This document shows positions 3,850 through 64,000 of a stretch of DNA of 64,000 nucleotides, piece by piece; position 1 is the first letter of the stretch, and every line of letters begins with the position of its first letter. The translations under genes were made by a program, and so were the position numbers. The notes under the pieces were generated by a model. The model searched no databases. It was given only the letters and a program-made list of their open reading frames with translations, and was not told the origin of the DNA. The stretch is from IMG/VR virus record IMGVR_UViG_3300045988_095709, positions 33,509 through 97,508 of that record. The stretch is one strand, 5' to 3'. The stretch is from a virus.

Positions 3850-4368
3850 ATGTTCGATATAAAAGGAAACAAAATAGTATTGAGTACTGATGATCTTGCG
3901 ATACCTCCTTTTAAAGAATTTTACAATAACGCAAAAGATAAAGAACAAGCGAAAAAGGAAATAGAATATGTAATATGGAGATACAAATGGAATACTCCAT
4001 ACGAATCTTATCCAGAAAACGAAAGATCTCAAAGAGTATCGAAAGATTTATTTGGTACTACTACATACGAACCAGACGATAAAGTTAAAGAATTGATAAA
4101 AAGATTCAACGAGTTTCAGGAGACTCCTAGTACAAGATTACTAGGAGCTTCTAAAACCGCAGCTGAGGGAGTTATGTAGGCATTAAAAGAATATTCTACT
4201 GGTGAAGTTGATATAGATACTGCTATAAAGATAACTAGAATTCTGAAAGATGTAGGAGGTATAGTAAAATCATTAGACGTAGCTATGAAACAAGCCAAGG
4301 CAGAACAGTTAGAATCAGGAAGAGTAAAAGGTGGAGGAACTATCGGATTATACGAAGTTCCGAAATAA
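3850..4368 (+). CDS. Hypothetical protein; possibly the small terminase subunit, by position only
   Basis: ATG 3850 lies 2 nt after the fibre stop. There is one in-frame TAG (4177-4179) and the gene ends at TAA 4366-4368. It sits directly upstream of TerL. I recognised no diagnostic motif. Confidence 0.6.
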
Positions 4369-4378
4369 TATTTAAATT

Positions 4379-11694: not shown

Positions 11695-11722
11695 TGAACA
11701 TATTTAAAAAATCAATTAAAAT

Positions 11723-16234: not shown

Positions 16235-16312
16235 TTTTAACGTGGAAAGCCCAGCTAGTTAGGTCTAGTATTAATATAAGAGGGTGAGTAGAAAAAATTA
16301 ATTTTAAAATAT

Positions 16313-17371
16313 ATGATAACATACGTAAACACAGTGCTTGTTGGAAAAGGAGCAAGCGCAATTGTAAGCACAGATACAGAACTCGTGCACGAAAGTAAAG
16401 ATCTTACCAACGCTGGTAAGTATGTAATAATGGATATCGATAACGGAAAGCTTTTGTCAGCAGATACTGCAAACACAGCAAATAGAATTAAGATCGGTAT
16501 CATTCGTCCTGAAAATACTGCTATTCATCTTTCTGATGGTACAGTTAAGTATCATGACGTAATCAAGTGGTCAAACATAATAAGCAAGGATTCTATCATT
16601 TCTATTAACAGCCTTAAGTATGGTGCTGAGAAGAATACTGAAGAGAAGGTTACTGTAGATTTTTCTAATGTAAACACTCAGGTTATGGCAGACTTCGCTA
16701 AGGGAGGAAAGAGAATCGTTCTTCGTATTACTTATAAGGATCTTCCTACTAGATATCGTAAGTGGACTGAGTCTTATGAGTATATTACAGCTCCTGAGGA
16801 TACTGCAGATACTATTGCAGAGAGTTTTGCTGCTCAGATTAACGGACAGTACAAGAGAGCTAGAGTTACAGCTTCTGCTGCTTCTGGAGTACTTACTCTT
16901 ACAGCAATGCCTTATACAGATGATGATTCTAACGATTCTATCAACTGGGCAGAGACTGTACGTTTCAGTGTAAACTGCTACTTTACAGATCCTACTGCTG
17001 CAGCATTTGCTTCTAAGAACAAGTATGCAATTCTCGGTCTTGAGATCGAAAAGACTCCTGGAAAGAGATATGCTGCTGACGCTAAGCTTGTACGTGATCG
17101 TGAAGCTAATGCTATGGGTTACGAAGGAATCCTTAACAAGGGATGCTGCACTTGGCCTATCATCAAGCCGGCAATGCAGGTAGATATTACTAAGAACTAC
17201 GATGCTATTACATTGGAGTTCGAAAGAATGTATCGTGCTGCAGACGATATTTTCCGTAAGACGAAGGAAAGTATTGAGATCTATGACGTTACTGGATCTT
17301 TGACAGACGTTGCTAAGGCTATTAAGAATTTCTCAGGAATGACTATAGCCGGAGACGATCTTACAGCGTAA
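16313..17371 (+). CDS. Abundant virion protein, candidate auxiliary capsid or decoration protein (352 aa)
   Basis: This ORF is uninterrupted and TAG-free. It has the same G/C-ending, AAG/ATC/CGT-rich codon style as the MCP. Its stop context, ACAGCGTAATATT, is identical to that of the MCP, and its own hairpin plus T-run follows. Confidence 0.55.
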   Translation: MITYVNTVLVGKGASAIVSTDTELVHESKDLTNAGKYVIMDIDNGKLLSADTANTANRIKIGIIRPENTAIHLSDGTVKYHDVIKWSNIISKDSIISINSLKYGAEKNTEEKVTVDFSNVNTQVMADFAKGGKRIVLRITYKDLPTRYRKWTESYEYITAPEDTADTIAESFAAQINGQYKRARVTASAASGVLTLTAMPYTDDDSNDSINWAETVRFSVNCYFTDPTAAAFASKNKYAILGLEIEKTPGKRYAADAKLVRDREANAMGYEGILNKGCCTWPIIKPAMQVDITKNYDAITLEFERMYRAADDIFRKTKESIEIYDVTGSLTDVAKAIKNFSGMTIAGDDLTA

Positions 17372-43600: not shown

Positions 43601-46600
43601 ATTTAGATTAGAATTTCTTATAGAGTTATATCGGAGAGCAAAACGGAATAACAAGTTTGGTAAATACTGAAAATTTATCAGAAGAAGAGTTAAACAATGT
43701 TTAGAAAAAATATCAAGAATTACAAAATAGATATAATAATTACATTTCTAACATAGATACGATAGCTAAGCTTGCTGCTAATATGAAAACTCTTCAAGAG
43801 ATAAAAGCTCTTGATAGACTTAACGGTAGACAGTCTTTTATACAAAAACGCGTAGAAAGAGAAGTCAATAAAATAAAACAAAATATAAATAAAATATACG
43901 AACAGCAAGGAAAGCAAGCTCATAAGATGGATACTCTTTCTGACGTAGAAGATTTTTATAAGAAAGCAGGTCTTCCTATAAGTGAGGATTATATAAATAA
44001 CATAAAAACTATAGATGAATACAAATTACAACGAGATTTATCTATAGAAAAAGCTTATAAATTTATAACAGATCCCAAATACGCTAAAAAACAACTGTCT
44101 CAATACAAAGAAACTAAAAAACAAGACGAGTATTTACAACAACAAGTTGAGTCTGACTACTATGATAAAGTTCTACACGATTATGCCGTACAAGACGCTG
44201 AAATAAACGACAGTAATAATATATATGTCGGAGAAGATGGAAAAACTTATGCGGTAAGACTGAATGTAGCAAAAGACGAAAATGGAGAAGACGTTGAGTA
44301 TTATTCTAAACATCTATATGATCCAAAAACTGACGTAATGGACAGAAGTGAACTTCCTTTCGATAAAGAAGAATGGTTCGACGGAAGAGATCAGATAGAT
44401 GATATGACGCAAATAAAATCTCCTCAACTTAGAGAAAACGACGGATCTGAAGAACGTGTAGAAGAATTTTCTAAAAGACGAGATGTAAACGAATAGAAAC
44501 AAAAATATACTCAAGATCTATTAAACGATAAGAGTAGAAATGGTTATACAAGTAGAGCGAATCGTATAGAATCTTTTGTAGATGAAAATTATTCTCCGTA
44601 CAAAAGAGGAAAACAGTATTTCTTAAAGAACGGAGAAGAAGAATTAGAGATAACAAAGACGGAATATAATTACGCTAAATGGTATAAGAAAAACTATTAT
44701 ACAGAACAACAAGAGGAAACACAAGACGATGTTCAAACCGAATAGGAAAATATAGACGGACAGCGTGATAACGTTGAACCACAGGTTTAGAAAGAAGAGA
44801 AACCTTCTGGACCAGAAGAATCTCAGAACACTGAACAAGAACAACCGATAACAAATAAAGAAGTAGAACAACCTGCGAGCGAACCTGAACAGAATCAATA
44901 GGAACAACAAGATTAGGAAGAAGATCAGAAGGTTCCAGATATAAAAATGACAGACGCTCAGAAAAATGTTATATAGGATCTTTCTCAGTTTAAGGTAGAA
45001 GGTAATAAAAAAATAAGATACGATTTGCGTTCTCCTATGGATTATTTTATAGAAGACGAAGATGGAAATATACAAGCGTATCCTAGAGTACATAGTAAAC
45101 TTAAGAAGATGTTCGAATTAGACCATACTGTATATGACAATATGAATTCTATATTCGAAGAACTTGAGAAATACAGACTTGATTTTATCGATGCATTCAA
45201 ACATAGAAATGACAATCAAGATGCCGCAGATAAATATAAAAAGTCTAAAATTTCATACATAAATAAAATAAAACAGTTACAATAGGAATACAACGAGTCA
45301 TTATTGAAAACTGTAAAAAATAATGAAAACTTGTACGATTTCTATAATGTTATTTTGGATGGATATTATTCTAACGATAATATACTAATGAGCAAATCCA
45401 CTACCGATCATATATCTAAAATAGTAGGAAATAGGATTGGTGATAAGGTACAGTTACCTGCTACTTCTGTAATATCTGGTACAATAGTTGACGAAATATG
45501 TAGAAGATGTTTTAGTGGAGAAGATGTTAAAAACGAACCGAGATTCAAAATGGACGATTCTACATTCGAACAACTTAAACAAGACATAATAGATGTAAAG
45601 TCTGACTTCGAAAGCAAAGGTTGGATACTACTTCCGCAACAATATTGTTGGTATACTGAATTAGAAGGAATAGGAAGAATCGCAGGAGAAACAGATATGT
45701 TGGCTGTTGATACTGACGGTTCTGTATATCTTATCGACTTTAAAACAAGTAAGAGATCTTATAAATACGGAACTCAAGTTAAAATTAGTGGGGATAAGTT
45801 AATCACACAACCTTCTAATTACGTAGAAGCTATAGACTGGAGTTTTGCAAAATCTAACTTTTCAGCAAGAGACGAATATAGAACACAGTTTACTTTGTAC
45901 TCTATGATGATACAACAGTGTACTATGTAGAGGCAGAAAGTAAAAACAATAAATATATTAGGATTTACCGTAAAAGCTTCTGTTTCAGATAATGATCTTG
46001 TACAAATTAAATCAATAGAAAAACCTAATTTTATAGAGTTAGAAATACAGGATGATTTGAATACTTATTTGATTTTTGACGAAGATTCTTAGAACACAAT
46101 AAGAAAAGAAAAAGAAAATTATTTAATTCTCATAAATCATATAGAAAATCAGTTACAATCTGATAAAAACTATTTAAATCAGCATTTCGATGAAATAAAT
46201 AAGAGTTCAAACTTATATAGAGAGTTAGAACAACTTTCTACTAGAACTAAAGATATAAAATCTAGAATAAATAAAATAGATATAAACAAAGATCCTGTAT
46301 CTGAATTGAAAAACATTCACGATCAATATCTGTAGTTATCTACTGATTACAGTAATGCTGTACAAAAAGTATAGGATTACTTATCTTAGAAAGCTGAACA
46401 ATATCAACAAGAACAAACACCTACAGTATCTACACAAAGTATACCTGTAGATATACAGTGGGACTTTAAAGAAATAGAAAAATACGATCGTGTATGGTAT
46501 ATAAACGTATCTAGGCAGAACGAAAAGCTTAGACAATTCAGAAGGATTACTACAAATAAAGATTTTATCGAAAACACTACTTTCTATTTGGATACAAACA

Positions 46601-49600
46601 TTAAAACGTTGATGAATCATGATTACATGATAACGTTTGAAAAAATAGTATATCACACTAAGGATCAAAACGGAAACGACGTATAGTTTGTATTAGAAGG
46701 AGATGACGCTAGAAGTGTATCTATTTACTTTGCAAAATACGATTAGGACAGAAGACCGTACGGATACGGATAGAATCCTTTAGTAAAACAAATAAAGGAA
46801 GCGTTACAACAAAACGAAGAAAACATAAAAAACAAAAACTTCCAATTAGTTTTGACAGGATTATCCAGAACAAATGGAGTCATAATAAGTCTTAAAGAAA
46901 ACAAAAATGTAAAAGACACGTTCGATTTTACAGAAGAATAGATAGAACACCTGTTAGAAAATGGTACAGACCGAGTAGGTGTTACTGATAAAATGGGTGT
47001 TGTAAAAACTATAGATAAAGCAAACAAAACTATATACGGAGACGGTATATATGCAAACTCAGGAGAACGTAGATTATCTCCTGGACAAGTAGTACTGATA
47101 CACGATTTAAAATATAACGAGGATAAAGGTAACGGCAACCATAAAATACCAATCGTACTCTTACCGAAAAAGATAACAAATGCCGATGCTGATCTTATTA
47201 TAAACCTACTGAAAGACACAAGTAAGTAGGAATTGGCTGTTACAAATTCTGGTATTGTTGGACCTATAACAAAATATTAGTTGTTATCTACACTCGTAAG
47301 ATTCGGTCGTGGTGCACAAAATACAGGAAACGATTTCGTATTTAGATACAAAGAAATAGACGGTGTTGCACAAAGAGACATTGTAGAACTACAAATCAGA
47401 GATGAAGAAGGTCAATTAATTACTACAGAATATGACTTGAATAATCCTGTATCTGTAGGTCAATTAAAACGACGTTTAGTAGAAGATGTATACTTATATA
47501 CAAATAATATATCTGTATTAAACAAGGCTACAAATAAGGCAAGAAACACAGATAAAAACAACATATTCTCACAGTTACAAGAATTCTTCGAAAACAATCC
47601 TAATATAAACTAGATAAGTTATGGAGAGAGTATGGTGTTCAATCGTGCAGACGTAGATCCTGACGGAGATGGTTCGTACAAAGGAATAACAGGATTACAC
47701 TGGATGATAAGACACGGTTGGCTTACTACTAACTACGGTGGTGTTACAGATTCTATTTTCTCGGCTACAGGAGTTTAGGGAATAATACCGAACAAACAGT
47801 AGTAGAATATAGAACAACATCCTGAACCAGAAAAAGTAGAAAATATAGACGTATAGCCAGAATAGAATGTCGGCGGAAACATAGGATACGAGAAAGAAGA
47901 TGTTGAAGATGTTAGTATAGACGACGTTAACGAACTTCTTGGTGGAGACTTTGTGGCAGACAACGAAGGTCTTTTCCATAAGCAAAAAGGAAAAGCTAAT
48001 GTAAAGATAGAAGAGAATGTAGCAAGAAGAACTATAAAACGAATTGTTGGAGACTCTATACCTTTACAGATGATAGACGATATTATATCGGTAATGTATG
48101 ATGGAGATGTTGTCGGTATGTGTACTGCAGCTAGTATATATATTTCTAGACAAGCTGAAGCCGGTACTGATTACCACGAGTCTTTCCATGCTGTTGTCGA
48201 ACTTCTTATGGATAAAAATAAGCGTGAGAGTTTGTATAAATTTACTAAGAATAAATTTAACATGCAAAACGCTACAGACGAAGAAGTTGCGGAAGCTTTA
48301 GCAGATTTATTCTTCTTATATAGTAAAGATGCTATACATTTTGAGGGAAGAATTGGAAGACTGTTCTCTTATGTAAAAGACTGGATAAATGCATTTAAAG
48401 TTACAAAAAGTTTAAGGCTTGCTAATTTGTTTGTGAATGCAGATTTTGGAAAATTCGCAAATAAAACTATAAGCAAAGAACAGGTTAACGATTTTAAAAA
48501 TAGATTCCCAAAAGGTCTTAACTTGAAAATAAAAGGTAAGAACGGAAATGGTGTAGAATTTAAACACATATACACATCTACTCAATTAGACGACGCAATT
48601 AATTATTTAGTATATCTGATAATAAAGAATGAAGGTATAAGTAGTATTGGTTCTAATCTAGACAAGTTAGATATTTCTAAGGAGCATCTTACTAATACGA
48701 AACTTGACGAAAACAACAAACCGATTTCTAATTTCGGAAAAACTTATAGAATAGTAACAATGAGCGGTAAGTCTGAATAGGAATTGGATGATTTAGTAAA
48801 AGAAGGAAAGATAACGCCTCTCGTTAAAAACAACGTGTTAATAATGAGAGAAATATTTAACAATTACGAAGACATCAAACCTATGATACTCGCAAAGTTG
48901 AAGAGCATGGGTGTTAACTCTAGACTAGACTAGGAATAGACAGAAAGAGAAAACAAAGAGGGAGACGATGTTAGTCAAATATCACGAGATGTAGATTCTC
49001 ACGCAGACGAATTCTACACACATTCGATGTCTGACGATTTATCTTCTAATATGATATTCTTCTTAAGTACTAGACCTGCATTAAGATATGCTACATAGGA
49101 GGATGTTGATAATGGAATTGTACAATCTTTGTATAAGAAAGATAGAAACGGAAACGAACAGAGAGTTTTAGTATCTTCTTCTAAAAATTCTATGGGAATG
49201 ACTACTTTCCTAGATTACAAACAAGTACACTAGTTATTATTATCAAATCTTCATGATGTGAAAGACGTTGAAGATTTATATAACAAACTTAAAAAACTAG
49301 GAAAGAACGATTATCTTTATGAAAATATAGCAAGAAGTTTATATCAATTTAGATTCCAATCTTATAAGAGATATACCAACAGAAAAGACGGAATGGATAA
49401 CGTACCTATGGTAATGTATAAAGGAAAATTATTAGATCCTAAACATTATATTTCTAATAAAAACAAATTATCATAGGAAGATCTGTATCCTAAGTTTGTA
49501 AGATGGTCTCATGATGTACTCGACAAGAACGGAAAAATAATATTCAAAGCCGGAGATGTGATACAGGGTGCAAGTATTGTGATGAATTACGATATGGAAA

Positions 49601-52600
49601 ATCTTACTACATAGTTGTTCCAATCTATAAAATCTCAAAAGTTAGATTATAACTTCTTGTATATAAGATCTGTAGTTGACGATAACGGAAAAGTTATAAA
49701 CGGAAATTATTTATATTCTTACCATCCTACCAACTACGATAGATCGCAGCAACAATATCCAATACAATGGTTTGATAACTTACGTTCTTCTTTCAGCGGA
49801 TTATTTACTAAGTCTGGAGATCTTAATAAGAATTTTACAAACTTTAAAGACTCTAAAAAATATCTTTCTGAATTGTATAACGCGTTAACGTTGGCGAAAG
49901 CTAATAACGGAAAGATTACAATAAACAAAGTAAATTACGACTTGACAAAAGGATCTGACTTAAGCGTTGTTATATCGTAGTTTGTAAAAAGTATGAGAAA
50001 CATAGGCGTAGATATAGATACCAATATGGTTCAATATTTACTACAACAGATGAACCCTGATGAACCTATGTTATACTTGGCATTCGTAGATTTAATAACT
50101 AAGGGAGGAAATAATAGTGTATACAGTATATTATAGCTTATAAAAGATAACGGTATTCTAGACTTAATGCAAAATAGGCTAGAGGCTGGAGACATATCTT
50201 TCTTTACAAAAGATCAACCTAAAAACAATAGAATACACGATAGTATAAATACCGGATCGTATGTTTATACTAAGAGTGGCTTCTTAACGTTATTGGCAAT
50301 GTGGCAAGGAAAATTTAGAACATCTACTACAGAACTTATGACAATAGGTCCTGAAAACACAAAGATGTATACTTTTGCTCAAAACCATACAGCTTCGGAT
50401 ACTATATACGATCTTAATAATTCTTATGACGAAAACGGAAATCTTGTAAAAGGATGTACACTTGAAGAGTTAAGTTAGGTGGATTATGTATTAGCTAGAG
50501 ATCAGCAAGGTAATAGAATAGGATCTATTATAGGAAAAACTCTTATGAATAAATATTGGAATCCTAATCATAATAAATTACAACTGAGAACTTCTGCTGG
50601 AACTAAATCTTCTACTTATTCTGACGAAGGATCTAAGTATTCTAAGACTACTTCTAGAGAAGACTATATGGCTAAAGTACAGATGTTGTTATAGGGAGAT
50701 ATAATATTCCCGGCATTGTCTGATAAATCTACATATTTCTCTATAAGCGGAATAAAACTTCCAGGACTTAATTTCGATAACAGTTCTTCATCGATAGGAA
50801 GTCTTCCGGTATTTAACTCAAACACTGGAACAATGATGTTTATACACAATGTGATGGAGAATTCTGATGATAAGATAAGAAGTATTGAGGATAATCCGAA
50901 AAGCGGATATAGATATAACGACGTTCTTGATTAGTTTATAGAATATTTTACTTGTGAAAATATAAATGTAAACAAAACTATAAACGACTTAGGATTGTAG
51001 GAATAGAACGCAACAAATACTCCGATATCAGAAAATCAGAAAATTACAAACTATCACAAAGGAAGTATAAATGGTGCAAGATATTTGAGTTTGATGGGAA
51101 TATACGCATTAGAAGATATGGAAATAAAGATAAACGGAAAAACTAAATCTTATAAAAAGGGAGATTATATACCGTTTAACTTTAAAGCAAATACTCCTAG
51201 TGAAGGTATACTTGAAGGAAGAAATCTTGCTCAGTCTCTTTTCTTTGACCAACCTATAGAAAAACAAAGAGTGATAGTAGCTGAAATATTAAGAAGAAGA
51301 CTTGATGATACGTTGAACGACTTGTTAGAAATGGGAATAATAAGCAAAAACGACAATGCTTCTAAAGCAAAAGGTATTGTTACTCATGATTATTATTCTT
51401 ATAAAAATAATTATTTTGACGTAGATAAGATAAACAGATTAGCTAGGTGTTATTCTAACATAGAAGGAATACAAACTTTCGGAAATTCTGCATTAGAGTC
51501 TTTAGGTGTAGTAGCGATGGCGTACGATATAATGTGTAAGAGTATGATGTCTATGGAAGAAACAAGACGTTTCTTTACGGGAATGCCTCAGTTCTTTAAA
51601 ACAAAATATTCTTCAGAAGGAAATTTAGTAGATTATGGAACAGACGAAACTAAACGTTACGGAGGTGAAGGTTCTACTGGTTCTAATAACCGTGAAGACA
51701 TGGCTAATATACCAGAAGAGTATACTTGTGCAGAGCTAAAAGATTGGGAAATTTCGTCTGCTATAAGCGAATCTTTGGAACAGGCTTTCAAAGAAGGAGA
51801 ATATAGAGAGTCGTTATCTGTATACTATAGCGAAAATCCATCGTTAGGTAAACCTTCCGACGCTTATAATATGTCTATAGAAGACGTAGAAAAAGAATTA
51901 GAAAAAACAGGAATGTTAGAAATGATTGACATGAAGATAAAAAAAGAATCTAATTCTTATAAAAGCGAAATAAACGTTACAGACGGTACTGCTTACATAA
52001 CAGATACTATGGCAGAAAATCTGTTAAGAATGCGAGGAGCGTTTAATAACGAAATAGCAGAAGCGTTTGAAAGACTGAGAGGCGATAAAGGATACCTAAA
52101 TAGTGCACAAGATTATAAACTTATACACGAAGCACTTATAAGTACATAGAAATATTCTGCTTTCGGATACAGAATGCAAAACGGAATACCGGTACACTTC
52201 TACGATAAGTTCGCATTGTTCCCAATGTTCAAAGGAATATCTTTCGGATTTAGTAGAGATCTTTATGATAAGATGCGTAAAGAGGGTGTAGATATGGTAA
52301 TGTTTAATTCTGCTGTAAAATCTGGATCTTAGGGTGCGTAGAAGTTCTCTCCTGATATGACAAAAGAAGATTTATAGAAGTTTACATTTAAAAACAATAT
52401 CTATAAACAAAAGTATAAGTACATAAGAAGGCAGTTGAATACAGATCCTAGAACTGATGAAGTAATGGCTGCAGGAACACAGGCTATGAAGGTTTCTCTC
52501 AGTGTACTTAGAGATTGGCAAACATATTCTATACAAAATCCTGACGGAACGGAACAAACTTTGAATAAAAACGAAGTATTGAGTGCTATAATGGACAGGA

Positions 52601-55600
52601 TGAACAGAATGGCTGAAATAGGAAGTCAGTAGATAAAAGAAGAATTCTTTACCAACGGAAAGCTAGATTACGCAAAATTAAAAGATTTCATAGTAAGAGA
52701 ACTTTCTAGTAGAAATGCCGATAAGAATATACTTGAAGCTGTCAATTTGGATTATCTTACTGACGAGAACGGAAATATAATTCCGGAAAGCGTACATTTT
52801 GTTACTGACATAAACGTAGTTTCTAATATGGCATGGATAGAAAGTATATTGATATCACATATAAATAAAAAAGTAATAGATATTAATTTTAAAGGAAATG
52901 CTTTCTATCAGAGATCCGTGTTTGGTCTTGATAGCCCTACTGTATTAAACGACGATTAGGTAAAATACGAAATGAATGGTGGTAAACCTCTGCAGATGAT
53001 AAATGAAGAGGGAAGTATGGACGCAGTAATAAGTATAGACTACTTTATGGATATTATACCTAAGAAATATAGATATAATTTCAAAAAAGCAAAACAATGG
53101 TTGATTGACAACGATATTATATCTGGTATAAAAACAGGAACAAAAGAGTGGAATAATGCTAAAGCTAGTGTGTTATCATACCGTATTCCTACTCAGGCGG
53201 CATCTTCTATTCACGCGTTAAGATTTGTAGACGTATTACCAATCGTTAGAGATACTATAATACTACCTAGAGAGTTTACTAAGATTACTGGTTCTGACTT
53301 CGATATTGATAAATTGTATTTATCGTCTTTCTATTATAATGTAAACAAAGAAACCGGAAAGTCATCTTTGATAATGGACGACGAATATGAAAATACAGCA
53401 AATCAACTTCTTTCTATATATCTTTCTTTGATTAAAGATGCTGGAAAACAAGTTACAGACGGAAAAATATCTAAGTCTAGATACATGCATATATTGAACA
53501 GATCTATTGATAACGATACAGAGTTGATAACCAATGTTCTTTCTGATATAGAATCTGGAAAAACTAAAAAGACCGTAGAGCCATATCAATTTGAAAATCT
53601 AACCAATCAAGTAAAGATAAAACAATCATTTGCTACAGGTAAACTCGGAATAGGACCGTTTGCGTTGAATAACAACAATCAGGTACTTACTATGTTGTAC
53701 AACGTTTCTTTCAAAGATTTTGGAGACAACGATAAAAGTTTATTAACTTATATCGGAATGAACAGGTTAGATAGGATTACAGATATAAACGGAAACCATA
53801 TATTATCGTGGATATCTGCGATGATAAACGCACACGTGGACGTTGCGAAGGATCCGTATATATTAAGATTAAATGTAAATAAATTTACATATAATCTAGT
53901 AAATCTACTTATACGTTGTGGTCTAGGAGATAGAGCTTTATATTTCATCAACAACCCTATAATAAAAGATTTAGCTAGAATAAGTGAAGAAACGCAAGGA
54001 AGAATAGTTGATGAACCGGAAATAAGCGTAAGAAAAAGGTTTGAAAACGCTTAGGAACAGTATATACGTGACTGTAAGTTTAGAGATGAGTCTTTTTCTA
54101 AGTTGTATATGAAAGCTAAGGACGAAGAAAAAAGAGCTGCTGAAAAGAAAGATTTTGATAAAATCGCAGAAATAATGGGAATGGATAGAGACGGTCTTCC
54201 AATAAATAGTATTAAAATATTTAAAGACGGTCAGTATTATACTGTTGATGGTACATATATAATGAGAGACATTTTAAAAAATAAAGACGTACTCATAGAT
54301 GAAAACAAACCGTTAAGTATGGATAATCTTAGAGACGACGATCAGTTTTATTACGTGTTGGAAGGTGATAGAAGAGTTACTCCAAAAGAAGTTTAGATGT
54401 ATATATTCTTAGCTATGCAAAATTTAAACATAAATGCAGCGGCTCTTTCTGCAGTAGTACAGGCTACTAAAGTAGACACTAAAAAGCACGGTAAAACTGT
54501 AAGAGAACAATCAGAATATAATGCTAAATACGAATAGTTATTAAGAGGTGGTATATCTAACATGTTTGAAAATTTGGATAACATGTTGACAAAATCTTAT
54601 ATAAACGTTAAAACTAATCTCGGAATAGGTATTCCTAAGAAAATTCTTTAGGAGTTTTCTATAACAGCTACAGACAATTTTAGATACGTAGTGGATTCTA
54701 TATGCTCTATGTACTTAAACAACTAGACTTCTAAAACTAAAACATCGATACAGAATGCTGTTCTCGCATACGTTAAACAGATTGCTATGAATAAAGCTAT
54801 GGAAGATAACGGAATAACTAGCGAAAAGTGGATGGAGATGATACAAGGAAGAAAAACGTTAGCACAGAGAATAACAAACCTTCAGAACATATTGATTTCG
54901 GATGTAGATGGTAAATATAAATCTTTAGCTACTAACGGAACAATAATAAATCCATTACTTGCTAATTTGCGAAGAATTCCATATCAACCACAATACGGAC
55001 AGGTTCACTACGATCTTATAGGGTTAGAAAACAAAGGAGCTGACGATAGTGAATTGAGTAATAACTATATTGATGCATGGTAGCAACTTTTAGATTATGA
55101 TGATCCTCAATATCCAAAAGAGTCTGAAGCTATAAGGAAGCTAGCTAGCGATCTTGCTGTTTATGCGTTTGTGACATCTTCTGATACTAAAGGAACAAAT
55201 AAATTTTTCAAATATGTTCCTGTTTCTTGGAGAAATGATTTTGGGTATTCAGAGTATATAAGATAGGCTTTTTAGTACTTTAAAGACGGAAACGTAAAAG
55301 TACAAGAAGATGCTGAAGATGGATTTTTAACTATAGATCCGTACGAATTAATAATGAATAACTATATGGATCCTAATATTCTACCTACACATAAGATGAA
55401 TAAGTTTATGGGATCTTCTTATCAGTATAGTGAAACGGATTTCTAGGGAAAGATTATAACAAGTAATATATACACAATGATTGCAGGTCTTGTTAACGAT
55501 AGACCTACAATGTATAAATCTGAATACATTACACAATATCCTCCTTTTGTCAGAATACAAAGACCAAATACCAATAGATTTTCTGCAGATTAGTATTTGT

Positions 55601-56760
55601 TGTATAGACTTGCTGCTTACGGTACTAAAACGTTATCTGACGGTAAACAGGTATCTTATCCTGTATATATACTTTTAAATCCTAAAGGTCAGAGAGTTAA
55701 AATAGGTGCTCAAAATTATGATTTCTATTCTGTAGGAAGAGACGATAATTATCAGCACGATTTCTTAAAAGGTGAAACTCCAAACTTCTTAGAAAAAGTA
55801 AAATGGATATAGAAAAACATAGAAAAAATACAGGAGTTGAGAGCAGCTAAAACAGCAACAGTAGGAGACGTGAGATAGTTGTTCGACATACCGGCAGGAG
55901 ATAGTTATTCTATACAAACGTTCGGAAATATATAGAGAACAGTATATCAAAATGAAAAATACGGAAATATAGGAGAAGCTGAAATACAACACGACTAGTT
56001 ACAATTAGAGCTCGGACCATATGGTGAATGGGAAATAAAAGGCGATAATACTTCTAAATTTGATACAAACAAAGCATTAGATACATACACATTGCATTCT
56101 GGTGGAGCAAAAGGTTCAGACTCTTACTGGGGAACAGCAGGAGAGAAATACGGCTTATTGTACGACGATAAACACCAAAGACACTATTATCACCAAGAAA
56201 AAACTCCTGTAGGAAATGTAGAAATATCTAATTAGGATTACGAAGAAGGAAGATACAAGGCAGCATAGGCTGCTTCAGCAAGATGGGGATATAACTTGAA
56301 AACAATGAAAGATAATAGATTGATTAGAAATTGGGCTCAGGTTAAATATTCAGATGCAATATTTGCAATAGGAACTCTTGTTAAACCCGGACAACCGATA
56401 GATCCAAACAACAATAAAGAAACAAGAATTGCTAAGAAAGTAATAGTTTCTGGAGGTACCGGATATGCTGTAGAGATGGCTATACAAGCTGGTAAACCTG
56501 TATACGTATTCGATTAGAGGAGAAACAGATGGTATAAGAACATAGACGGAAAATGGTCTAAATCAGATATTCCTGTACTTACTAAAAATTTCGCAGGTAT
56601 CGGAACTAGAGAGTTATAGGATAACGGAAAATAGGCTATAGAAGACGTATATAAAAAGACTATAGAATAGATGTAGAAGAACTCTACTAATTAGGATATC
56701 GATATCAATATAGAAGATTTCAGTAATCTAAACGAATAGAGACATGAACAATGTGATTAA
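40642..56760 (+). CDS. Giant multidomain virion protein (5372 codons) containing an RNA-polymerase-type DxDxD motif
   Basis: I read frame 1 codon by codon across every gap between 25 same-frame track ORFs, from ATG 40642 to TAA 56758-56760. TAG was the only stop. The last upstream in-frame stop is TAA 40609-40611. Embedded signatures are annotated separately below. Confidence 0.8.
45304..45930 (+). other. PD-(D/E)XK (RecB/Cas4-type) nuclease domain inside the giant protein
   Basis: The sequence ...GETDMLAVDTDGSVYLIDFKTSK... (D-F-K at 45736-45744) is followed by ...RTQFTLYSMM..., which fits the QxxxY motif typical of RecB-family nucleases. Confidence 0.55.
48100..48310 (+). other. Candidate zincin metallopeptidase motif inside the giant protein
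   Basis: HESFH (48175-48189) fits HExxH. It is followed 35 residues later by EALAD, which fits the ExxxD third-ligand motif of gluzincins. Confidence 0.4.
52972..54054 (+). other. Putative catalytic region of a crAss-type virion RNA polymerase
   Basis: The motif ..TKITGSDFDIDKLY.. places DFDID at 53296-53310. This DxDxD metal-binding motif is analogous to NADFDGD of multisubunit RNAP beta-prime, and lies within a very large virion-module protein as in crAss-like phages. Confidence 0.55.
56092..56514 (+). other. SLOG / DprA / DUF2493-like Rossmannoid domain at the C-terminus of the giant protein
   Basis: The signatures are LHSGGAKGSDSYWG ... NRLIRNWAQVKYSDAIFAIG ... VSGGTGYAVEMAIQAGKPVYVFD. 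These fit the GGAxGxD and GGTxxxxxxA..GKPV pattern. Confidence 0.45.
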
Positions 56761-56772
56761 AATTATTAAATT

Positions 56773-59700
56773 ATGGTATGTATAATAGAGAGTAAATATT
56801 AGAAAGAAATAGAAGATCTTACTGGTATAATTGGAGACAGGGAGACTGCTATATCACTATTATGCGCAAATAACGGGTTCACCTTAGACAAAACACCCTA
56901 GGGTGAACCGTCAGATTTGTATCAATAGTTATTAGGACAGTTCTCAAACGACGAAGCAGGAAGAAGACGTGCTATTATATACAAAGCTAGAACGTTCGGA
57001 AGTTCTTTCGTTAATAAGTATGGAAAATGGTTTGAATAGGACGCATAGTCGTAGAATAACAATTTTGACTCTAACGGTGAACCTGTTTTAAGTATAGTAC
57101 TTGGTGATAAAAATTTGTTTCAAAATAGTACGGAGTAGGATTTTTCACAACTTAAGAGAGAGTATGTCAGTCGTTTAGTAAACGAACTTCTTTTTGAAAA
57201 CCCAAACGCTAGTCAAATAGAAATACTAAACAAAGAAATAGAAGCACAGCAAGAGTGGGCTAATCAATAGGCTAATCAGTTGGACGAAGATGTTGAAATG
57301 TCCAGAATAGACGCAGAAGATACAAAAAGACTATTGAAAAACGAGAACATATTGATTGGGAAGGCTAGTAAATCTGTAATATAGATGTTTAGAAAAGCAA
57401 AAGAAAGAGCTAAAAAACTTAGAGAAAATCTAAACATAAAAAGTCTAAATCTGAAAGATGACTTATCAAACAAAATAGACGAGACAGCCAACCAGATAAT
57501 ATCTGCAACTATAAGTAAGGAAAAGGCTTATAAATCTAAAAACTTCTCTTCTTCTACTTCTTATGGAGATATAAACTAGTAGATATAGAACTAGGAAAAT
57601 TCTAGAAAAATACGTGGATATAGAAAAAGTATAATAGAAGCACAAAATAGTAAAAATGCAAAGAAAGAATTAGATGCAAAACTTGAAATGTTCTTGTATT
57701 TTATAGAAAATGCATCTGACGAAATAAATAAAATATTATCAATGCTTCTTAATGCTGAGGCTAATGAGTATAAAAAGATATATTATAAAGTAGATAGCGT
57801 TGGAAATATAATATACAACGATGAAAACAATAAATATTACACCGAACAAAACGAAAAAGAAGGTGTACAATACGGTACGTTTGATTTTAACGACCTTCAG
57901 TATATAAACACTGATGTTATTGGATTTTACGACGGTGTACTACATAATATATTATTGATATTAGACTAGCTTGACGAAAATGATCCGAAAGTTAAATTGC
58001 TTAAAGACTCCATAAGAATTTCAGATGTATGCAATAATATATTTTCAGCTAAAAGAAAGTATCAGATAGCTCTAGAAAATAAAGTAATGGATATGGTCAG
58101 AGAAGGTCTTGACGAAATTCCAGAAGAAAGACTAGACTCTGAAATGAAAGCAAGATTGATAGTAAGAACTAAAAAATGGCTTAGAAATCAGTACGATTTT
58201 GGTGATGTTACTGTATTCGAAAGAGTTATAGGAATAGGAAGTAGATCTAAAAGTTCACTGATAAGACTTATTCAGGAAGTAATAAACTAGATAGAAAACG
58301 AAATACGTATAGAAACAAGTAAGAAAGGTTTTAAATTAAATGATCTATACAGAAAAGCGTTAAATAAAAACAAAAAATATATGCTTCCCGGTATGAGTTT
58401 GCAGTAGTTACTGATGGGTAAAGACAGAAACGGTTTACCAAACGGAGATTTCGTAAGACCTATAAATTACAGACAGTATCAACAAGATTTAGAGAACATT
58501 TAGGCTGAATTACTATTTGGAAAAGATGGTATTAGAGACCGAATTGCAAATCTAAAAGACGATAGTGGTAATTATATATTCAGATATCCAGATACGAACA
58601 CTTACGAAATAGAATTTGATGAACACGGAGAACCAATATTACCAAATCATCCAAAACTAGAACAAGCATATAAGAATTACTATAAGAAACTGGAGTCTTG
58701 GAAATGCGATCATTCTGAAAGACCGTATACTAAAAAATATTATATTGAAAGGTTGGATCATTTGTCTATATCTACTATACAAATGATGAATAAGTTGTAT
58801 AGTGGAAGAAACGAGATAATACAAGCTGCTACAGTAGACGGATAGTTCAGACCTGATAAACTTTCTGATTTCTAGTTAGACGAGCTGAATAGATACAATC
58901 AAGAAATACAACAGTTGTCCAGTCCTTTTTATATTGACGGAACAGAAAAAGATCCTTACACTCCAGAAGGAATTGCAGCTAGAGAGATAAGTAGTTGGCA
59001 AAATACAATATCTGACCACATAAAATATAAGACTAGTATTGAAAAGTACAATCAAGCATTATCTTTTGCGAAAGATAAGAAAAAATTTGCTAGATTGTTC
59101 AGTAAGTGGATAATAAATCCTAAATTATACGAATGGTTGGATGATGATTTTCAGATGAATAATTCGTACGTCAAATCTCTTAAAAAGACCATTAATAAAC
59201 TTATGGCTCCGTACAAAACAGATAAAATCGGAGAAGTCAAATGGGATATGCTTTTTGATTTTGAAACTGGAAAAATCAAAAATGAGAAATGGTTTGAAAG
59301 TATGATTGAAGTTTCTAAAAGATATAGTGAAGAAATATCTTTATAGTATAAAGATTATTCTAACGAAGATGATAACGGTGGTACAAAATATAATGAACTA
59401 ATAGACGAGGTGTATGTACCAAAACCAGGATTTCAGTACGATTTTTCATATACTTATGAAAACTCTATGCTTAAATACATGAAAGATGCGTATTAGAATT
59501 ACTTGGTAGAAAACAAAGGTTATAGTACACAACAGGCTAGTTCTATCGCTGCGAATACATTTTCGTATACTTATATGACAGCAAAGGGTAAACTTATAAG
59601 TAAACCTATTTCAATATTTATGATGCGCGTTCCTAAAGAAAAGAAACAATTTAAAGGTATAGATGGAAATTATTACAAATCTTTTATAAGAACGCCTTCT

Positions 59701-62073
59701 TCTATGTTTTCAGAGATAGATTTAGAAAACTCTTCTAGTGATTATATAAATAAAAATTACGATAGACAGTCAGATTAGACTTTACAACCAAAAGAGTCTA
59801 TATATAGAGATGAAAACTATTATAAATATATAGAAGGAAAGAAAGAGATGAAAGAATTGTACGATGAATTAATTAGTACAATGGAACAATCTTTTTAGAA
59901 CTATCCTTTTGTGAAGAAATATGATTATAGATTGCCACAGAGAGGAGAAACAAGAAATTCATCTATACTTTCTAGAAATCTATTGACAAGATTGGGTGTA
60001 AACGTAGGAGAAGTTTTAGATAGAACTCTGTCTGTAAACGAAAACGATTTGGATATAAATTTCCAAGAATAGGTATTACGACCAGATGGAACACCTATTA
60101 AAAATATACCAATAAGGTGGATAAGAAGACTTAGTAAACCTGAGTATATATCTTCAGATATAATAGGTTCTGTTACTTTAATGTATGGAATGTCTGTAAA
60201 CTATAAATTAAAAAATCAAAAAGTTTCTCAAGTAGAGTCTATTTTAAACTATATAAGAAGTAACGATCCTAGTAGTTCTTCAAAATAGGCAGAAGCTATA
60301 CAAGGAATGATAGATAGACAATTCTATGAAGAACAGACATCTGGACTGAAAGTAAATCCGACGCCAGAATAGTGGAAACATGCTGATTGGTTTAGAAGAT
60401 ATTTCTGGAGTGCTAAATCATGGTTGAAAAAAGTAGGACAAATAAGAGGTATCGCATAGTTAGGTATGTTGGCATTCAACTTAGGTTCTGGTATAGTTTC
60501 GTCTTTAGACGCTACTACTAGTATGGTTATAGACGTTCTTACTGGAAAATATATAAACTATAAAGACTTATCTTATGCATTCAGCCAGTTAATGTTTGAT
60601 TTACCTAAAGCTATAAACAGCTTAGGTAAAATAAAAACCGATAGTGATATATGCGCTCAGATGTAGTATTTTGGACTAGCAAAAGGAAACGCTCAGACGT
60701 TTAGAAACACCGATTATAGTAAACTGAGAAGATTTTTATCTGACGGATTACTTATGAAACAATTTGCAATAGGCGATTATACAATCAACGCTTTAAATAT
60801 GACATCTGTACTATATAATTATAGATTGTATGTAGATTAGGATGGAAAACGTCAACTATTAAATAAACCTGACTTCATAAGAAAGGCTATAAACGACGGA
60901 ATGACATATAAACAAGCCAAAAGTGCTTATAATTCCGCAAAGATAGCAAAACGTTTCCTTAAACGTGGAAAAGACGGCATGATTACTGTAGATAAAGAGT
61001 TTGAAAAGGATATGTACAGAATAGGACAGTAGATAAGAAGTAGATCGTCAATATACAACGGTGTTATAAATGATGCTGAACGTACATATTTCCAATCTAA
61101 TGTGTGGTTGTCTTTGATATCAATGCTTCGTAATTTCTTTATAGTAGGTATTTGGGAAAGATTTTAGACTTATCGAGATTTTCAAATGAGTGTCGAATAG
61201 ACTTTTGATCCTGAAACAGGAGAGATACTAAACGAATACGGAGGAGAAAATTTAAATCCTCAACAAGCTGCCAATATAAAGAAAGAATAGAGATATTATG
61301 CAGGAGGGTACAACTTCGATACCGGACAGATAGAAAACGGAACAACATTATCGTTCTTTAGATACTTATCTAAACTATATCCTTATCTTAAGTATTCAAC
61401 AGACGTAATATTCTCAGGAATGAGTAAGTACGATCCACAAAGAGAGTAGTACTTAAAAAATAACAATCTAAACGCGTAGGAAATATACGGAGCTTAGAAA
61501 ATAACTATGGAATTTACAGCAGCGATGTTATTTATATTAGCCAGTGCAAGTATATATAGAATAGCTAAAACAAAAGATCCAGATGACGATGATGCTTATT
61601 TGTGGTATCTTATCAACTATGTTATGGTTCGTCTCCCTATCGAAAGATTTACGTGGATGTCGTTAGATACAGTGAATGACCTTATAAATTCTATCACAGC
61701 AGCTTCTTCTGATTTAAAACGAAAAGGACATTTGATAGATATGGTTATGGAAGCGTTAGGATTAAGTAAGCACAAACTCACTGACGAAATGCCTTCAAAC
61801 AGTCAATATGCAGGTCAACAGCGATGGTTTTATCATCTTTGCAACATCGGTTCTAGTTTTGGTTTGCATAACTACTATGTTAATATGCCTAAAGCGTTAG
61901 GTGGAGGAGGAGCTAAACCTTTGATGCGTAAAGCATATTTCTATTATGATAAATTACCATTTGGTAATTATATTTACGATAGAGGTAAAAAGACAGACAA
62001 AGTAGATAAAAGAAAAAAGAATGTCGGAGTTTCTGTTATTAGCGATGACAGTAATGACGGATTTGATAGATGA
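56773..62073 (+). CDS. Second giant virion protein (1766 codons), function unknown
   Basis: I read frame 1 codon by codon from ATG 56773 to TGA 62071-62073 and only TAG interrupts it, first at codon 10. The C-terminal third has hydrophobic segments (60466-60560, 61507-61575). Confidence 0.75.
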
Positions 62074-62133
62074 CAAAAATATAACAATAGTATTTTGGTC
62101 GTATTTTAGCGGGACGCGAATATTATAAAAAAC

Positions 62134-62182
62134 AAAGGAGACTATAATTCCGATTTTTTCGGAACTATAATCTCCTTTTTTT
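62134..62182. terminator. Bidirectional intrinsic terminator at the convergence of the plus and minus transcription units
   Basis: AAAGGAGACTATAATTCCG (62134-62152) pairs with CGGAACTATAATCTCCTTT (60160-62178 region, 62160-62178), giving 19 bp with 2 mismatches. A T-run lies downstream on the plus strand and an A-run upstream, which is a T-run on the minus strand. It overlaps the last codons of the minus-strand gene 62142-62660. Confidence 0.7.
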
Positions 62183-62660
62183 GTAATCTATGCGAATCGC
62201 TTATCGTGTATTGAAAATCTATTTCAGGCACGGATTCAACTTCAAAATTATATTTGTTTTCAGAAGGATTCAATACGTATTTAGTAAAATTAATATCCGA
62301 TGTTCCCCAGAATTTTAATATAATTTCTGGTTTATAAATCATCGGATACACACTTTTTATCATGCGTTTTACTAAATGATCGACAGTTTGAATCGCATAG
62401 ATTGTATAGGATTTTCCATTTATCATGTATACTTTTGAACTTCTTAGATTTTTAAGCTTTAAGAATTTAAAGTATCTTTCCTGACTATCTATTGTTTTTA
62501 TAGAATTATCGTACATTAAAAAGATACAATCAAAAATAGCCGGTCTGTTGATATCGTAATTATACGCATTAACAAAACCGGCTGAATAGCTAAAATCCTT
62601 TTGTGAAATTGCAGTACTACTAAATAATAAAGGAATTATAGCTTTTATTTTAACAGACAT
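62142..62660 (-). CDS. Hypothetical protein (172 aa), standard code, TAG stop
   Basis: The ORF is uninterrupted and its stop codon is TAG (complement of 62142-62144). The N-terminus is hydrophobic and signal-like (MSVKIKAIIPLLFSSTAISQ). Confidence 0.7.
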   Translation of the reverse strand: MSVKIKAIIPLLFSSTAISQKDFSYSAGFVNAYNYDINRPAIFDCIFLMYDNSIKTIDSQERYFKFLKLKNLRSSKVYMINGKSYTIYAIQTVDHLVKRMIKSVYPMIYKPEIILKFWGTSDINFTKYVLNPSENKYNFEVESVPEIDFQYTISDSHRLQKKEIIVPKKSEL

Positions 62661-62667
62661 ATTGATT

Positions 62668-63699
62668 CTAAGATTCTAATGTTTCAAACCCGTTATTGTT
62701 ATAATATTCTAAATGATGATCCCACTTATTATTAGCATAATGCCAACAAATTTGTGATAACGAGTCATTTACTGTTTTTTCTCTACTTTGTATTTGTTCT
62801 TTAGTGATTTTAAATACACGTATTTCTGGTAATACGGATGTACTTATGCAAATAATATTACAGTCGAATTTCCATTCTTCTGCGTTTTCACCAAGAATGT
62901 TTTCTAAAAACCATTTTGTAGCTTTTATGTAAAAACAAATTTGTCTGAAATAATCGTATTCTTTAACACTATCTTCAAAATGACCTATTTTATTAGTAGT
63001 TTTCAAATCAGAAATTGTACAAATTTTATTTTTAAAATTAAAATTTATACTGTCAAGTAACGATTTACAGTTTATTACTCCGTATTCTGTTTTAAACTCC
63101 CAATCGATTCGGAATTCATGATATGTTACTCCTTCTGTAGGATATAATATCTTATTTGCAGCTTTATGCTGTTTTACTAAATATTCTAAAAGTAATAGAT
63201 TCGTTTTAGAATTTTTAGTTATGAGTTCTACTTTAGGATATTTGGTCTTAATATCTATGTAATTCTTTAGCTTATTGGCTATTTCCTTTGCTTTAGACAG
63301 TATCAAATCGTTCGAGCTTCCAGTTGTCTTATACGATGATTTATAAGCGCTTAGAAGCGATTTATCAGGCATTATTTCTACGCTATTAATTAGCATACTA
63401 CAAAACTTTTCCTGATTTACTGATTGCGGTTTTTCACCGTTGAACACCATATAATTCTTATCAAACTCTTCTGGTTGTAATAAAAACATATGTATCATTG
63501 TTCCTTTTGATAAATACTCAGTAGATATAGTATCGAAAGTTCTATCATTTAATTTTTTATATAAATACGCAGGACCATTTTTCAAAAAATAACCAACATC
63601 ACTATTACTTATCTTGCAACTAGAATAATATTCTGTTTCAGTATTAAGATTAGTAATGTATTGATTTATCTTTTCTATTTGTAATTCTTCGTTATTCAT
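62668..63699 (-). CDS. PD-(D/E)XK exonuclease (RecB/Cas4/YqaJ-like), replication/recombination module
   Basis: This uninterrupted 343-aa ORF contains ...CTISDLKTTNK... (D-x-K core) followed by ...YFRQICFYIKA (QxxxY). Its stop codon is TAG (complement of 62668-62670). Confidence 0.65.
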   Translation of the reverse strand: MNNEELQIEKINQYITNLNTETEYYSSCKISNSDVGYFLKNGPAYLYKKLNDRTFDTISTEYLSKGTMIHMFLLQPEEFDKNYMVFNGEKPQSVNQEKFCSMLINSVEIMPDKSLLSAYKSSYKTTGSSNDLILSKAKEIANKLKNYIDIKTKYPKVELITKNSKTNLLLLEYLVKQHKAANKILYPTEGVTYHEFRIDWEFKTEYGVINCKSLLDSINFNFKNKICTISDLKTTNKIGHFEDSVKEYDYFRQICFYIKATKWFLENILGENAEEWKFDCNIICISTSVLPEIRVFKITKEQIQSREKTVNDSLSQICWHYANNKWDHHLEYYNNNGFETLES

Positions 63700-63707
63700 A
63701 TAAAAAA

Positions 63708-64000
63708 TTAATTCTGAATTTCAATATTCAAATCGTTTAGAAGATCTAACTCCTTAGAATCTGGATATAACTGTACTTCGTATAAAAAGTTAATAATATT
63801 ATCAAAACTTTTAACTTTGAATTTGTTAATTAAATCCAAACATCTTATTTGTTTCTTTTCATCGTCCTTTATTATTTCGTTTATGAGATTTGATATACTA
63901 TTGTTATCCAATCCTTCAAACTTCTTATAATATCGAATACGAGAACAACGATCTATCAGATTTTCATTAGCAAAATTTTCATCGTTACAAGTAAATAATA
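63708..64000 (-). CDS. Hypothetical protein, 5' end outside the window
   Basis: The frame stays open upstream of the track's TTG start (63911) to the window edge. The stop is TAA (complement of 63708-63710). Confidence 0.55.
   Translation of the reverse strand, partial: LFTCNDENFANENLIDRCSRIRYYKKFEGLDNNSISNLINEIIKDDEKKQIRCLDLINKFKVKSFDNIINFLYEVQLYPDSKELDLLNDLNIEIQN

Follow-up and report, generated by a model that had tools for sequence, protein, structure and literature searches.

A module of ~200 amino acids (aa) with SLOG-type glycine-rich loops was characterized in a stretch of viral DNA of 64,000 nucleotides (nt), positions 33,509 to 97,508 of IMG/VR record IMGVR_UViG_3300045988_095709 (hereafter the window). 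A giant virion protein with a crAss-type RNA polymerase (RNAP) carries the module as its final folded domain. The module represents a distinct conserved family without a Pfam model, most probably a distant branch of SLOG with cpYpsA as its closest kin. The fusion is not unique to the window but widespread: the module was acquired more than once, and at varied positions, by two polymerase types of unrelated fold that both enter the host with the genome.

Reading frame and carrier protein

An earlier note, made from the DNA sequence alone, had reported a SLOG/DprA/DUF2493-like nucleotide-binding domain at nt 56092-56514, fused to the C-terminus of an RNAP-containing protein. Frame 1 of this segment (plus strand) translates as LHSGGAKGSDSYWG ... 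RNWAQVKYSDAIFAIG ... VSGGTGYAVEMAIQAGKPVYVFD, exactly as had been claimed. Under the standard code this frame is broken by two in-frame TAG codons (nt 56233 and 56266), and long open reading frames (ORFs) are nearly absent from the window, which has a G+C content of 32 %. When TAG is read as sense, a series of long plus-strand ORFs appears, among which one of 5,382 codons. Over its 16 kb this giant ORF contains 104 in-frame TAG codons, no TGA and a single TAA, the terminal codon (56758-56760). Apart from the two mentioned, TAG codons are found within the module at nt 56617, 56632 and 56668, and another is the codon just past the reported segment. In the family alignment the latter falls in a column that holds Gln in 237 of the 256 other sequences, which indicates that TAG encodes Gln and that the region belongs to the giant ORF.

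It could be argued that the TAG codons are true stops, and that the motifs stem from small separate ORFs or from a chance match. The interruption of the frame under the standard code would agree with this, as would the result that no tRNA gene, suppressor included, was found within the 64-kb window. The stop codon usage over 16 kb and the TAG codon on a near-invariant Gln contradict such an artefact. The same arrangement was moreover found in 36 TAG-recoded relatives from IMG/VR and in 27 standard-code relatives with an uninterrupted ORF, and the giant proteins of RefSeq crAss-like phages are laid out alike. Nor can the motifs be a chance match, being invariant positions of a family with 2,304 clusters. 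This explanation is effectively refuted, with a probability close to nil; the readthrough of TAG as Gln and the fusion of module and polymerase are real. Since the window harbours no tRNA gene, the suppressor must be encoded elsewhere.

The polymerase part of the giant ORF is of the crAss-like virion type, with a two-barrel core that carries the DFDxD motif and is homologous to gp66 of phage phi14:2. The match of residues ~3940-4485 to this protein (PDB 6VR4) has E=1.4e-22, with TGSDFDIDK aligned. The reported fusion to the C-terminus of an RNAP-containing protein thus holds, in a single ORF with TAG as Gln. Virions of phi14:2 contain gp66 and deliver it into the host cell; in vitro this protein transcribes single-stranded DNA (ssDNA) and denatured DNA, not double-stranded DNA, and its homologue QDE-1 requires RPA and a helicase (10.1101/2020.03.07.982082). 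Judging from homology and gene order, packaging and ejection probably apply to the carrier in the window as well. The virion RNAP of phage N4 (vRNAP) is likewise ejected with the genome and uses ssDNA hairpin promoters.

Besides polymerase core and module, only two weak motifs were recognized in the giant protein of the window, both in its N-terminal half. These are an HExxH motif (TDYHESFH, 48175-48189; Pfam Peptidase_M41 at only E=0.05) and a PD-(D/E)xK-like motif (DMLAVD...LIDFKTSK, 45694-45753; PDDEXK_1 at E=0.064). A built-in peptidase of the HExxH type could conceivably free domains of the protein, the module included, by proteolysis. A megablast search with the giant ORF against deposited phages gave one match of 167 nt and nothing more. 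A very close relative exists in IMGVR_UViG_3300045988_119203 (L014; 64,876 bp), which shares 96.5 % nucleotide identity with window positions 46041-64000 and lends itself to analysis at population level. Compared to this relative, dS is 0.34 in the RNAP core and 0.08-0.16 in the flanking parts, which hints at recombination.

The next ORF (56770-62073, plus strand; 1,767 codons) is also TAG-recoded and follows the giant ORF after a gap of 9 nt, as in the Suoliviridae references; its product presumably is another large virion or ejection protein. Code use in the window is split. The long plus-strand ORFs (window 1-62073) require TAG as Gln. Two minus-strand ORFs (62142-62660 and 62668-63699) and a few on the plus strand (11720-13243, 16292-17371) need no recoding and are uninterrupted in the standard code.

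The module family and its affiliation

The segment 56092-56514 proved to be the core of the module, ~70 % of it, and omits the last of its motifs. The module is thus larger than had been reported (Table 1). An alignment of 60 members defined a unit of ~200 residues with 19 invariant positions and five motifs (HSGGAxGxD, EG, RNWxQVK, GGTG and AGIGTR), and the window copy retains all five. The family is large, with 1,208 matches at E<=1e-3 in a database clustered at 90 % and 2,304 clusters at 50 % identity in an exhaustive search. Free-standing phage proteins of ~200-250 aa that start just upstream of motif 1 account for many of the nearest relatives (62-67 % identity). Fused and standalone copies retain the motifs at close rates; in 62 crAss-type fusions HSGGAxGxD was kept in 52, GGTG in 60 and GxGxR in 58. 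Compared to the copy of the close relative L014, the module shows a dN/dS of ~0.20, based on only 18 substitutions. In the vRNAP of Alteromonas phage PT15-A5 (OP481051.1, aa ~1084-1250) every Gly-rich motif of the module is lost while the overall sequence frame is kept, with YTNRTTSPN replacing HSGGAxGxD, KGSEGYP replacing GGTGYA and AGVAGKN replacing AGIGTRE; this copy is probably inactivated or repurposed.

AlphaFold2 models were made from two homologues, ~65 % and ~45 % identical to the window copy (pLDDT 96.9 and 93.9, pTM 0.90). Both show an alternating beta-alpha fold with five main strands, in keeping with the Rossmannoid three-layer alpha/beta architecture with parallel sheet that is expected of SLOG domains. 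The two loops expected for this superfamily, HSGGAxGxD and GGTGYA, are invariant across the family. The best Pfam match is cpYpsA (PF12694; E=5.8e-4). The alignment is collinear and nearly full-length, pairing residues 13-171 of the module with positions 3-134 of the 145 in the profile; its score of 20.1 bits lies below the gathering cut-off of 26.2. Among 70 members scanned, the families recurring below threshold were cpYpsA, DprA, SLOG cluster4 and Nuc_deoxyrib_tr (nucleoside 2-deoxyribosyltransferase). The commonest of these was cpYpsA, matched by 6 of 60 members and by 4 of 10 divergent ones. LDcluster4 (E=0.0047) and DprA (E=0.0024-0.07) also remained below their cut-offs. A Foldseek search of PDB with the second model returned 3IMK at the top (E=3.1e-3, probability 1.00, TM 0.59), followed by generic Rossmann folds with probabilities of at most 0.41. 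This entry, entitled "putative molybdenum carrier protein", we take to be the structure of PF12694, formerly named MoCo_carrier and now cpYpsA.

A connection with DprA was found in PHROGs, where the window module matches phrog_768 "DprA-like DNA recombination-mediator protein" (E=2.6e-10). Taken alone, this match is a mere label on the same family. The profile is, however, also matched by genuine, PF02481-bearing DprA (E=4.6e-8, positions 3-77), next to module members at positions ~33-185 (down to 5.7e-14), so that both overlap at positions ~33-77. The module copy of Klebsiella phage Pylas matches the true-DprA PHROG at E=0.003. The sub-threshold DprA matches place the NFAGIGTRE strand of the module on positions 44-72 of the 212 positions of the DprA profile. 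A C-terminal strand that maps to the N-terminal part of this profile is the signature of a circular permutation, with which sequential aligners struggle. At relaxed settings hhalign pairs HSGGAxGxD with SGLAxGID, RNW of the RNWAQVK helix with RRNR, and GGTGYA...KPVYVF with SGSLIT...REVFAL of DprA. When the module profile was circularly permuted four motifs were aligned and the score was not raised.

The module shares the permuted order of cpYpsA: its first element is the Gly-rich-loop strand, and its last, a strand-helix unit, corresponds to the N-terminal third of the DprA model. It differs from cpYpsA in its larger size (~200 against ~145-158 aa, with an inserted loop and beta-hairpin) and in its own invariant motifs EEG, RNWxQVK and AGIGTR. 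To our knowledge cpYpsA has no known biochemical function. The likeness to DprA lies in the series SGxAxGID, RNR, SGSxxT and VVGSR, which resembles HSGGAxGxD, RNW, GGTGYA and AGIGTR of the module, and in the shared match to phrog_768. Unlike DprA, the module has a circularly permuted topology, and there is no evidence that it has a role in recombination.

Several searches were negative. Pfam gave no match to the C-terminal 250 aa of the giant protein even at E<=10 and NCBIfam gave nothing relevant. Hidden Markov model searches of PDB sequences, with single sequences and with profiles, returned spurious matches only (Hsp90, carbonyl reductases), and hhalign against the single E. coli Smf sequence had no power. 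Two results tell against the SLOG affiliation itself. Foldseek with the first model (P0003) found nothing better than E=0.41 in PDB. An hhalign comparison of 257 module sequences with an alignment of 96 DprA sequences scored 15.8 (P=0.16, probability 0.4 %), where the reversed control scored 12.6. SLOG membership thus is without a single significant test, the evidence (the PHROG bridge to DprA, the cpYpsA match and the 3IMK fold match) being convergent and individually borderline. Of the SLOG/DprA/DUF2493 call in the earlier note, the Rossmann-like module with SLOG-type Gly-rich loops has stood. Its nearest relative is cpYpsA, to which the Pfam and 3IMK matches point, and not DprA or DUF2493.

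Three known families were tried and rejected. DprA/Smf proper falls short in sequence, with PF02481 (best E=0.0024) below its cut-off, TIGR00732 at E=0.11 and hhalign not significant. It also falls short in strand order, the module opening at the HSGG strand and carrying the GxGTR strand at its C-terminus, and the flanking SAM and winged-helix domains were not found by Pfam in the C-terminal 250 aa. Members of the LOG family (cytokinin riboside 5'-monophosphate phosphoribohydrolase) have the motif PGGxGTxxE with a conserved catalytic Glu. In the module, with the consensus GGTGYAVxMAI, the Glu of this GGxGTxxE-type motif is not conserved; the Glu of the window copy (AVEMA) is at a variable position, and the Pfam scans gave no match to PF03641. 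YAcAr/DUF2493 (PF10686) was matched by 1 of 60 members (E=0.032) and by none of 10 divergent copies.

Distribution and domain partners

The earlier note had proposed a survey of other crAss-like RNAP genes, and such genes were indeed found to carry the module in large numbers. Neither of the outcomes that the note would have taken as a refutation, lack of similarity to SLOG/DprA/LOG-type folds or absence from all related genomes, has thus come about. The lists used, of the best 150 representatives and the best 80 IMG/VR loci, were ranked by similarity to the window module, and the counts below do not give the fusion frequency of the whole family. Of the best 150 representatives, 95 have a length of at least 1,000 aa; among these, a crAss-type RNAP core is present in at least 62, mostly with DFDxD, and an N4-type core in 8; most of the other 25 share further regions with either class. 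Relative to the crAss-type core the module is C-terminal in 33 representatives and N-terminal in 26. The closest 80 IMG/VR loci comprise 63 crAss-type giants (36 TAG-recoded and 27 with the standard code), 2 N4-type carriers, 8 other long or truncated ORFs and 7 standalone copies.

Among deposited phages, the module is located in the C-terminal part of giant proteins from three Suoliviridae genera, with the same gene order around them as in the window (Table 1). It is also present inside the virion RNAP of two cultured Schitoviridae, Pylas and PT15-A5. In Pylas it occupies aa 985-1157 of 3,819, with low-complexity sequence on its flanks, at the place where N4 vRNAP has the flexible linker between NTD and RNAP. 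No other deposited crAss-like genome has the module, and of the deposited N4-like phages only Pylas and PT15-A5 do; phi14:2 and N4 themselves lack it. A tblastn search against plasmids gave no match.

Members of the family were found fused to NADAR, DUF4326, ART-PolyVal, an AAA_33/zeta-type kinase, an SF1 helicase and an ExoX-like exonuclease. NADAR is present in 19 of the 95 representatives and in 19 of 69 IMG/VR ORFs (20-28 % of module-bearing giants), and in 9 and 13 of these, respectively, it directly abuts the module on either side, with a gap of ~9-25 aa, N4-type carriers being among them. Other accessory domains in module-bearing giants are SF1 helicase, AlkB-like 2OG-Fe(II) oxygenase, DUF1848, GHKL ATPase and RNase H; these giants are mosaic, polyvalent-like carriers. 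In at least two divergent phage lineages standalone copies show the order module, uncharacterised gene, NUDIX. The middle gene codes for 240 aa in L008 and 131 aa in L011 and belongs to no Pfam or PHROG family. An HD+AAA_33 polynucleotide-kinase-like gene lies upstream of the module in L008, and a metallophosphoesterase, an RNA ligase and a second NUDIX are nearby in L011. Such loci may be small operons for nucleotide or ADP-ribose processing.

Table 1 Features of the window (nt positions) and of module-bearing relatives
Feature	Position or members	Strand	Remark
Giant TAG-recoded ORF	open frame from 40612, first ATG 40642, to 56760	+	5,382 codons; carries the module
crAss-type two-barrel virion RNAP core	52429..54066 (aa 3940-4485)	+	match to phi14:2 gp66 (PDB 6VR4)
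Catalytic DFDID motif of RNAP core	53296-53310	+	
Module, ~200-aa cpYpsA-like SLOG-type Rossmannoid domain	56062..56670 (aa 5151-5353)	+	family alignment, profile and fold searches
Motif 1, HSGGAKGSD	56095..56121	+	Gly-rich loop after first strand; S, G, G, A, G, D invariant
DYEEG	56236..56250	+	family-invariant E-G pair
RNWAQVK	56326..56346	+	helix motif; R, Q invariant, N, W, V, K near-invariant
Motif 2, SGGTGYA	56449..56469	+	second Gly-rich loop; GGTG invariant
In-frame TAG at near-invariant family Gln	56515..56517	+	family alignment
AGIGTRE	56593..56613	+	C-terminal strand motif; G, G, R invariant; outside 56092-56514
Polar C-terminal tail	56671..56757	+	29 residues between module and stop
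NADAR abutting module, crAss-type giants	proteins P0182, P0233, P0184, P0126; loci L060-L081		
NADAR close to module, N4-type carriers	P0181, P0190, P0206		
Module-X-NUDIX loci	L008 7001-8786; L011 7001-8445; L015 3866-5546		
Buchavirus cr113_1 and cr109_1	giant protein (cr113_1: 4,328 aa)		module present
Chuhaivirus cr130_1	giant protein (5,801 aa)		module present
Buhlduvirus cr272_1	giant protein (6,386 aa)		module present, weaker match

Possible function and relation to known systems

The reading that we favour, and in which we place about half of our confidence, is that the module binds and probably processes a nucleotide or an ADP-ribose-containing substrate, as an injected counter-defence payload. 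The earlier note had suggested that such a domain could sequester or process host immune messengers or handle the end of the incoming DNA. The module would be an accessory cargo outside the polymerase machinery. Provided that the carrier travels in the particle and enters along with the genome, its module would arrive in the cytoplasm at the very first moment of infection. Its two Gly-rich loops and the invariant Asp, Glu and Arg would there bind, and probably cleave, the substrate. Candidate substrates are small NAD+-derived molecules, either immune signals or toxins, and ADP-ribose adducts carried by the entering DNA. A host defence based on NAD+ or ADP-ribose might in this way be blunted before any phage gene is expressed. 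We consider it rather unlikely that the module has a narrower task, as an enzyme tethered to virion polymerases that use ssDNA templates, which alone or with NADAR would strip ADP-ribose or ribosyl adducts from the single-stranded template of the entering genome and so counteract DarT-type defences. Its independent acquisition by Crassvirales and Schitoviridae would then be explained because both groups must transcribe exposed ssDNA before phage gene expression.

Known systems provide a framework for the favoured counter-defence role. In the sections of their papers considered here, Iyer, Burroughs, Anantharaman and Aravind (2021, 2022) predict for SLOG domains of viruses a role in sensing or cleaving signals derived from ADP-ribose, and describe these domains as "typically standalone" (PMC7824862; PMC9503650). 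The YpsA-like SLOG domains described there resemble the module in being phage-borne and mostly standalone (PMC7824862; PMC9503650), and in having the same partners, namely NADAR, DUF4326, SF1 helicase, 3'-5' exonuclease and kinase, together with co-occurrence of Nudix (PMC9503650). However, these sections do not mention crAss-like phages or virion-RNAP fusions (PMC7824862; PMC9503650) and do not list SLOG among virion-packaged domains. Phage NADARs (AdfN) remove ADP-ribose from phage DNA and thereby defeat DarTG1, a system whose toxins modify ssDNA (PMC11825919). NADAR directly adjoins the module in many giants; the module itself, however, is not a NADAR. The carrier further resembles the polyvalent proteins (Iyer et al. 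2017) and T4 Alt, in that diverse accessory enzyme domains are combined in one very large virion protein, and the module is also found beside ART-PolyVal. Indeed, relatives of the window giant combine RNAP and module with NADAR, SF1 helicase, AlkB-like, RNase H and GHKL ATPase domains, as expected of polyvalent effectors. The scaffold differs, being a virion RNAP and not of the MuF or relaxase type, and Iyer et al. 2017 do not mention SLOG and refer to DprA in another context only.

A number of points weigh against the counter-defence reading. NADAR was not found in the giant protein of the window, nor was a NUDIX gene found in the window by HMM search, and the ADP-ribose context is therefore borrowed from relatives. 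The SF1 helicase, ExoX, RNase H and AlkB-like partners point to work on nucleic acids and not on small molecules, and one N4-like copy, that of PT15-A5, is devoid of any Gly-rich motif. The similarity-ranked lists behind the fusion counts limit the argument from distribution. The domain, its fusion, its wide and repeated occurrence, its conservation and its partners are observed; injection in this phage, ligand, catalysis and counter-defence are inferred.

The main rival holds that the module is a DprA-like accessory that binds ssDNA and helps the polymerase to engage or protect its single-stranded template, or that recruits RecA- or SSB-type factors. It is in keeping with the single-stranded templates used by both capturing polymerase types, with the phrog_768 label and its bridge to DprA, with the motif-by-motif collinearity with DprA at relaxed settings, and with the fusions to SF1 helicase and ExoX-like exonuclease. 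We nevertheless regard it as unlikely. The comparison of profiles with DprA gave no significant score, the fold and Pfam searches were led by 3IMK and cpYpsA and not by DprA, and the flanking domains of DprA were not found by Pfam in the C-terminal region. That the module changes its place with respect to the RNAP core speaks against its being integrated with the polymerase. Its lack in phi14:2, N4 and most of their deposited relatives also counts against this rival. The NADAR, NUDIX and DUF4326 context, finally, suits nucleotide chemistry better.

Less likely than ssDNA handling, and improbable on the whole, is a sensor role, in which a non-catalytic domain binds a nucleotide, NAD+ or an ADP-ribose derivative and switches the carrier after entry, for example by relieving auto-inhibition of the polymerase or activating neighbouring effectors. 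Virion RNAPs are auto-inhibited inside the particle, and SLOG is a sensor in Thoeris ThsA (PMC11204291); Iyer et al. 2022 (PMC9503650) propose just such a role for SLOG fusions to nucleic-acid enzymes. A conserved allosteric interface is hard to reconcile with a module that lies on either side of the core at very different distances, standalone copies of ~200 aa are common, and the invariant acidic and basic residues suggest catalysis. It is very unlikely that the module is an inert passenger, a remnant of gene capture that is inactive in this phage and tolerated as another bead passing through the tail. The degenerate copy of PT15-A5 and the mosaic, rapidly shuffled architecture of the giants would fit such a remnant. 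They are opposed by the complete set of five invariant motifs in the window copy, by fused copies that retain the motifs nearly as often as standalone ones, and by the omega of 0.20 against the close relative, small as the number of substitutions is.

Injected counter-defence by the module would be of interest in several respects. Among the phages of the human gut Crassvirales dominate, and their evasion of Bacteroidota defences is almost unexplored. The module ranks with the commonest accessory domains of the polymerase proteins that they inject, was also captured by N4-like phages, and frequently occurs together with NADAR, whose action against DarT is experimentally proven. A general strategy is suggested, in which counter-defence enzymes are loaded onto the protein that is first to enter along with the DNA. 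As a compact, well-folded target of ~200 residues for biochemistry, the module could reveal what a family of over 2,000 clusters without a Pfam model does.

The domain superfamily, and injected effector domains as a concept, are already known. Three points appear to be undescribed: the repeated acquisition of the module, at shuffled positions, by virion polymerases of two unrelated kinds, its cassette with NADAR, and its assignment to a cpYpsA-like permuted SLOG family. The earlier note had not been aware of a description of the fusion; a literature search likewise found no paper that combines DprA or SLOG with crAss-like phages, Crassvirales, N4-like phages or virion RNAP. RefSeq, however, already names such giants "DprA-like DNA recombination-mediator protein" (NC_055896.1 gp38, 4,328 aa; NC_055901.1 gp79, 5,801 aa), with their polymerase identity unannotated. 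This is an annotation problem, polymerase proteins of 4,000-5,800 residues being named after one domain of ~200 aa.

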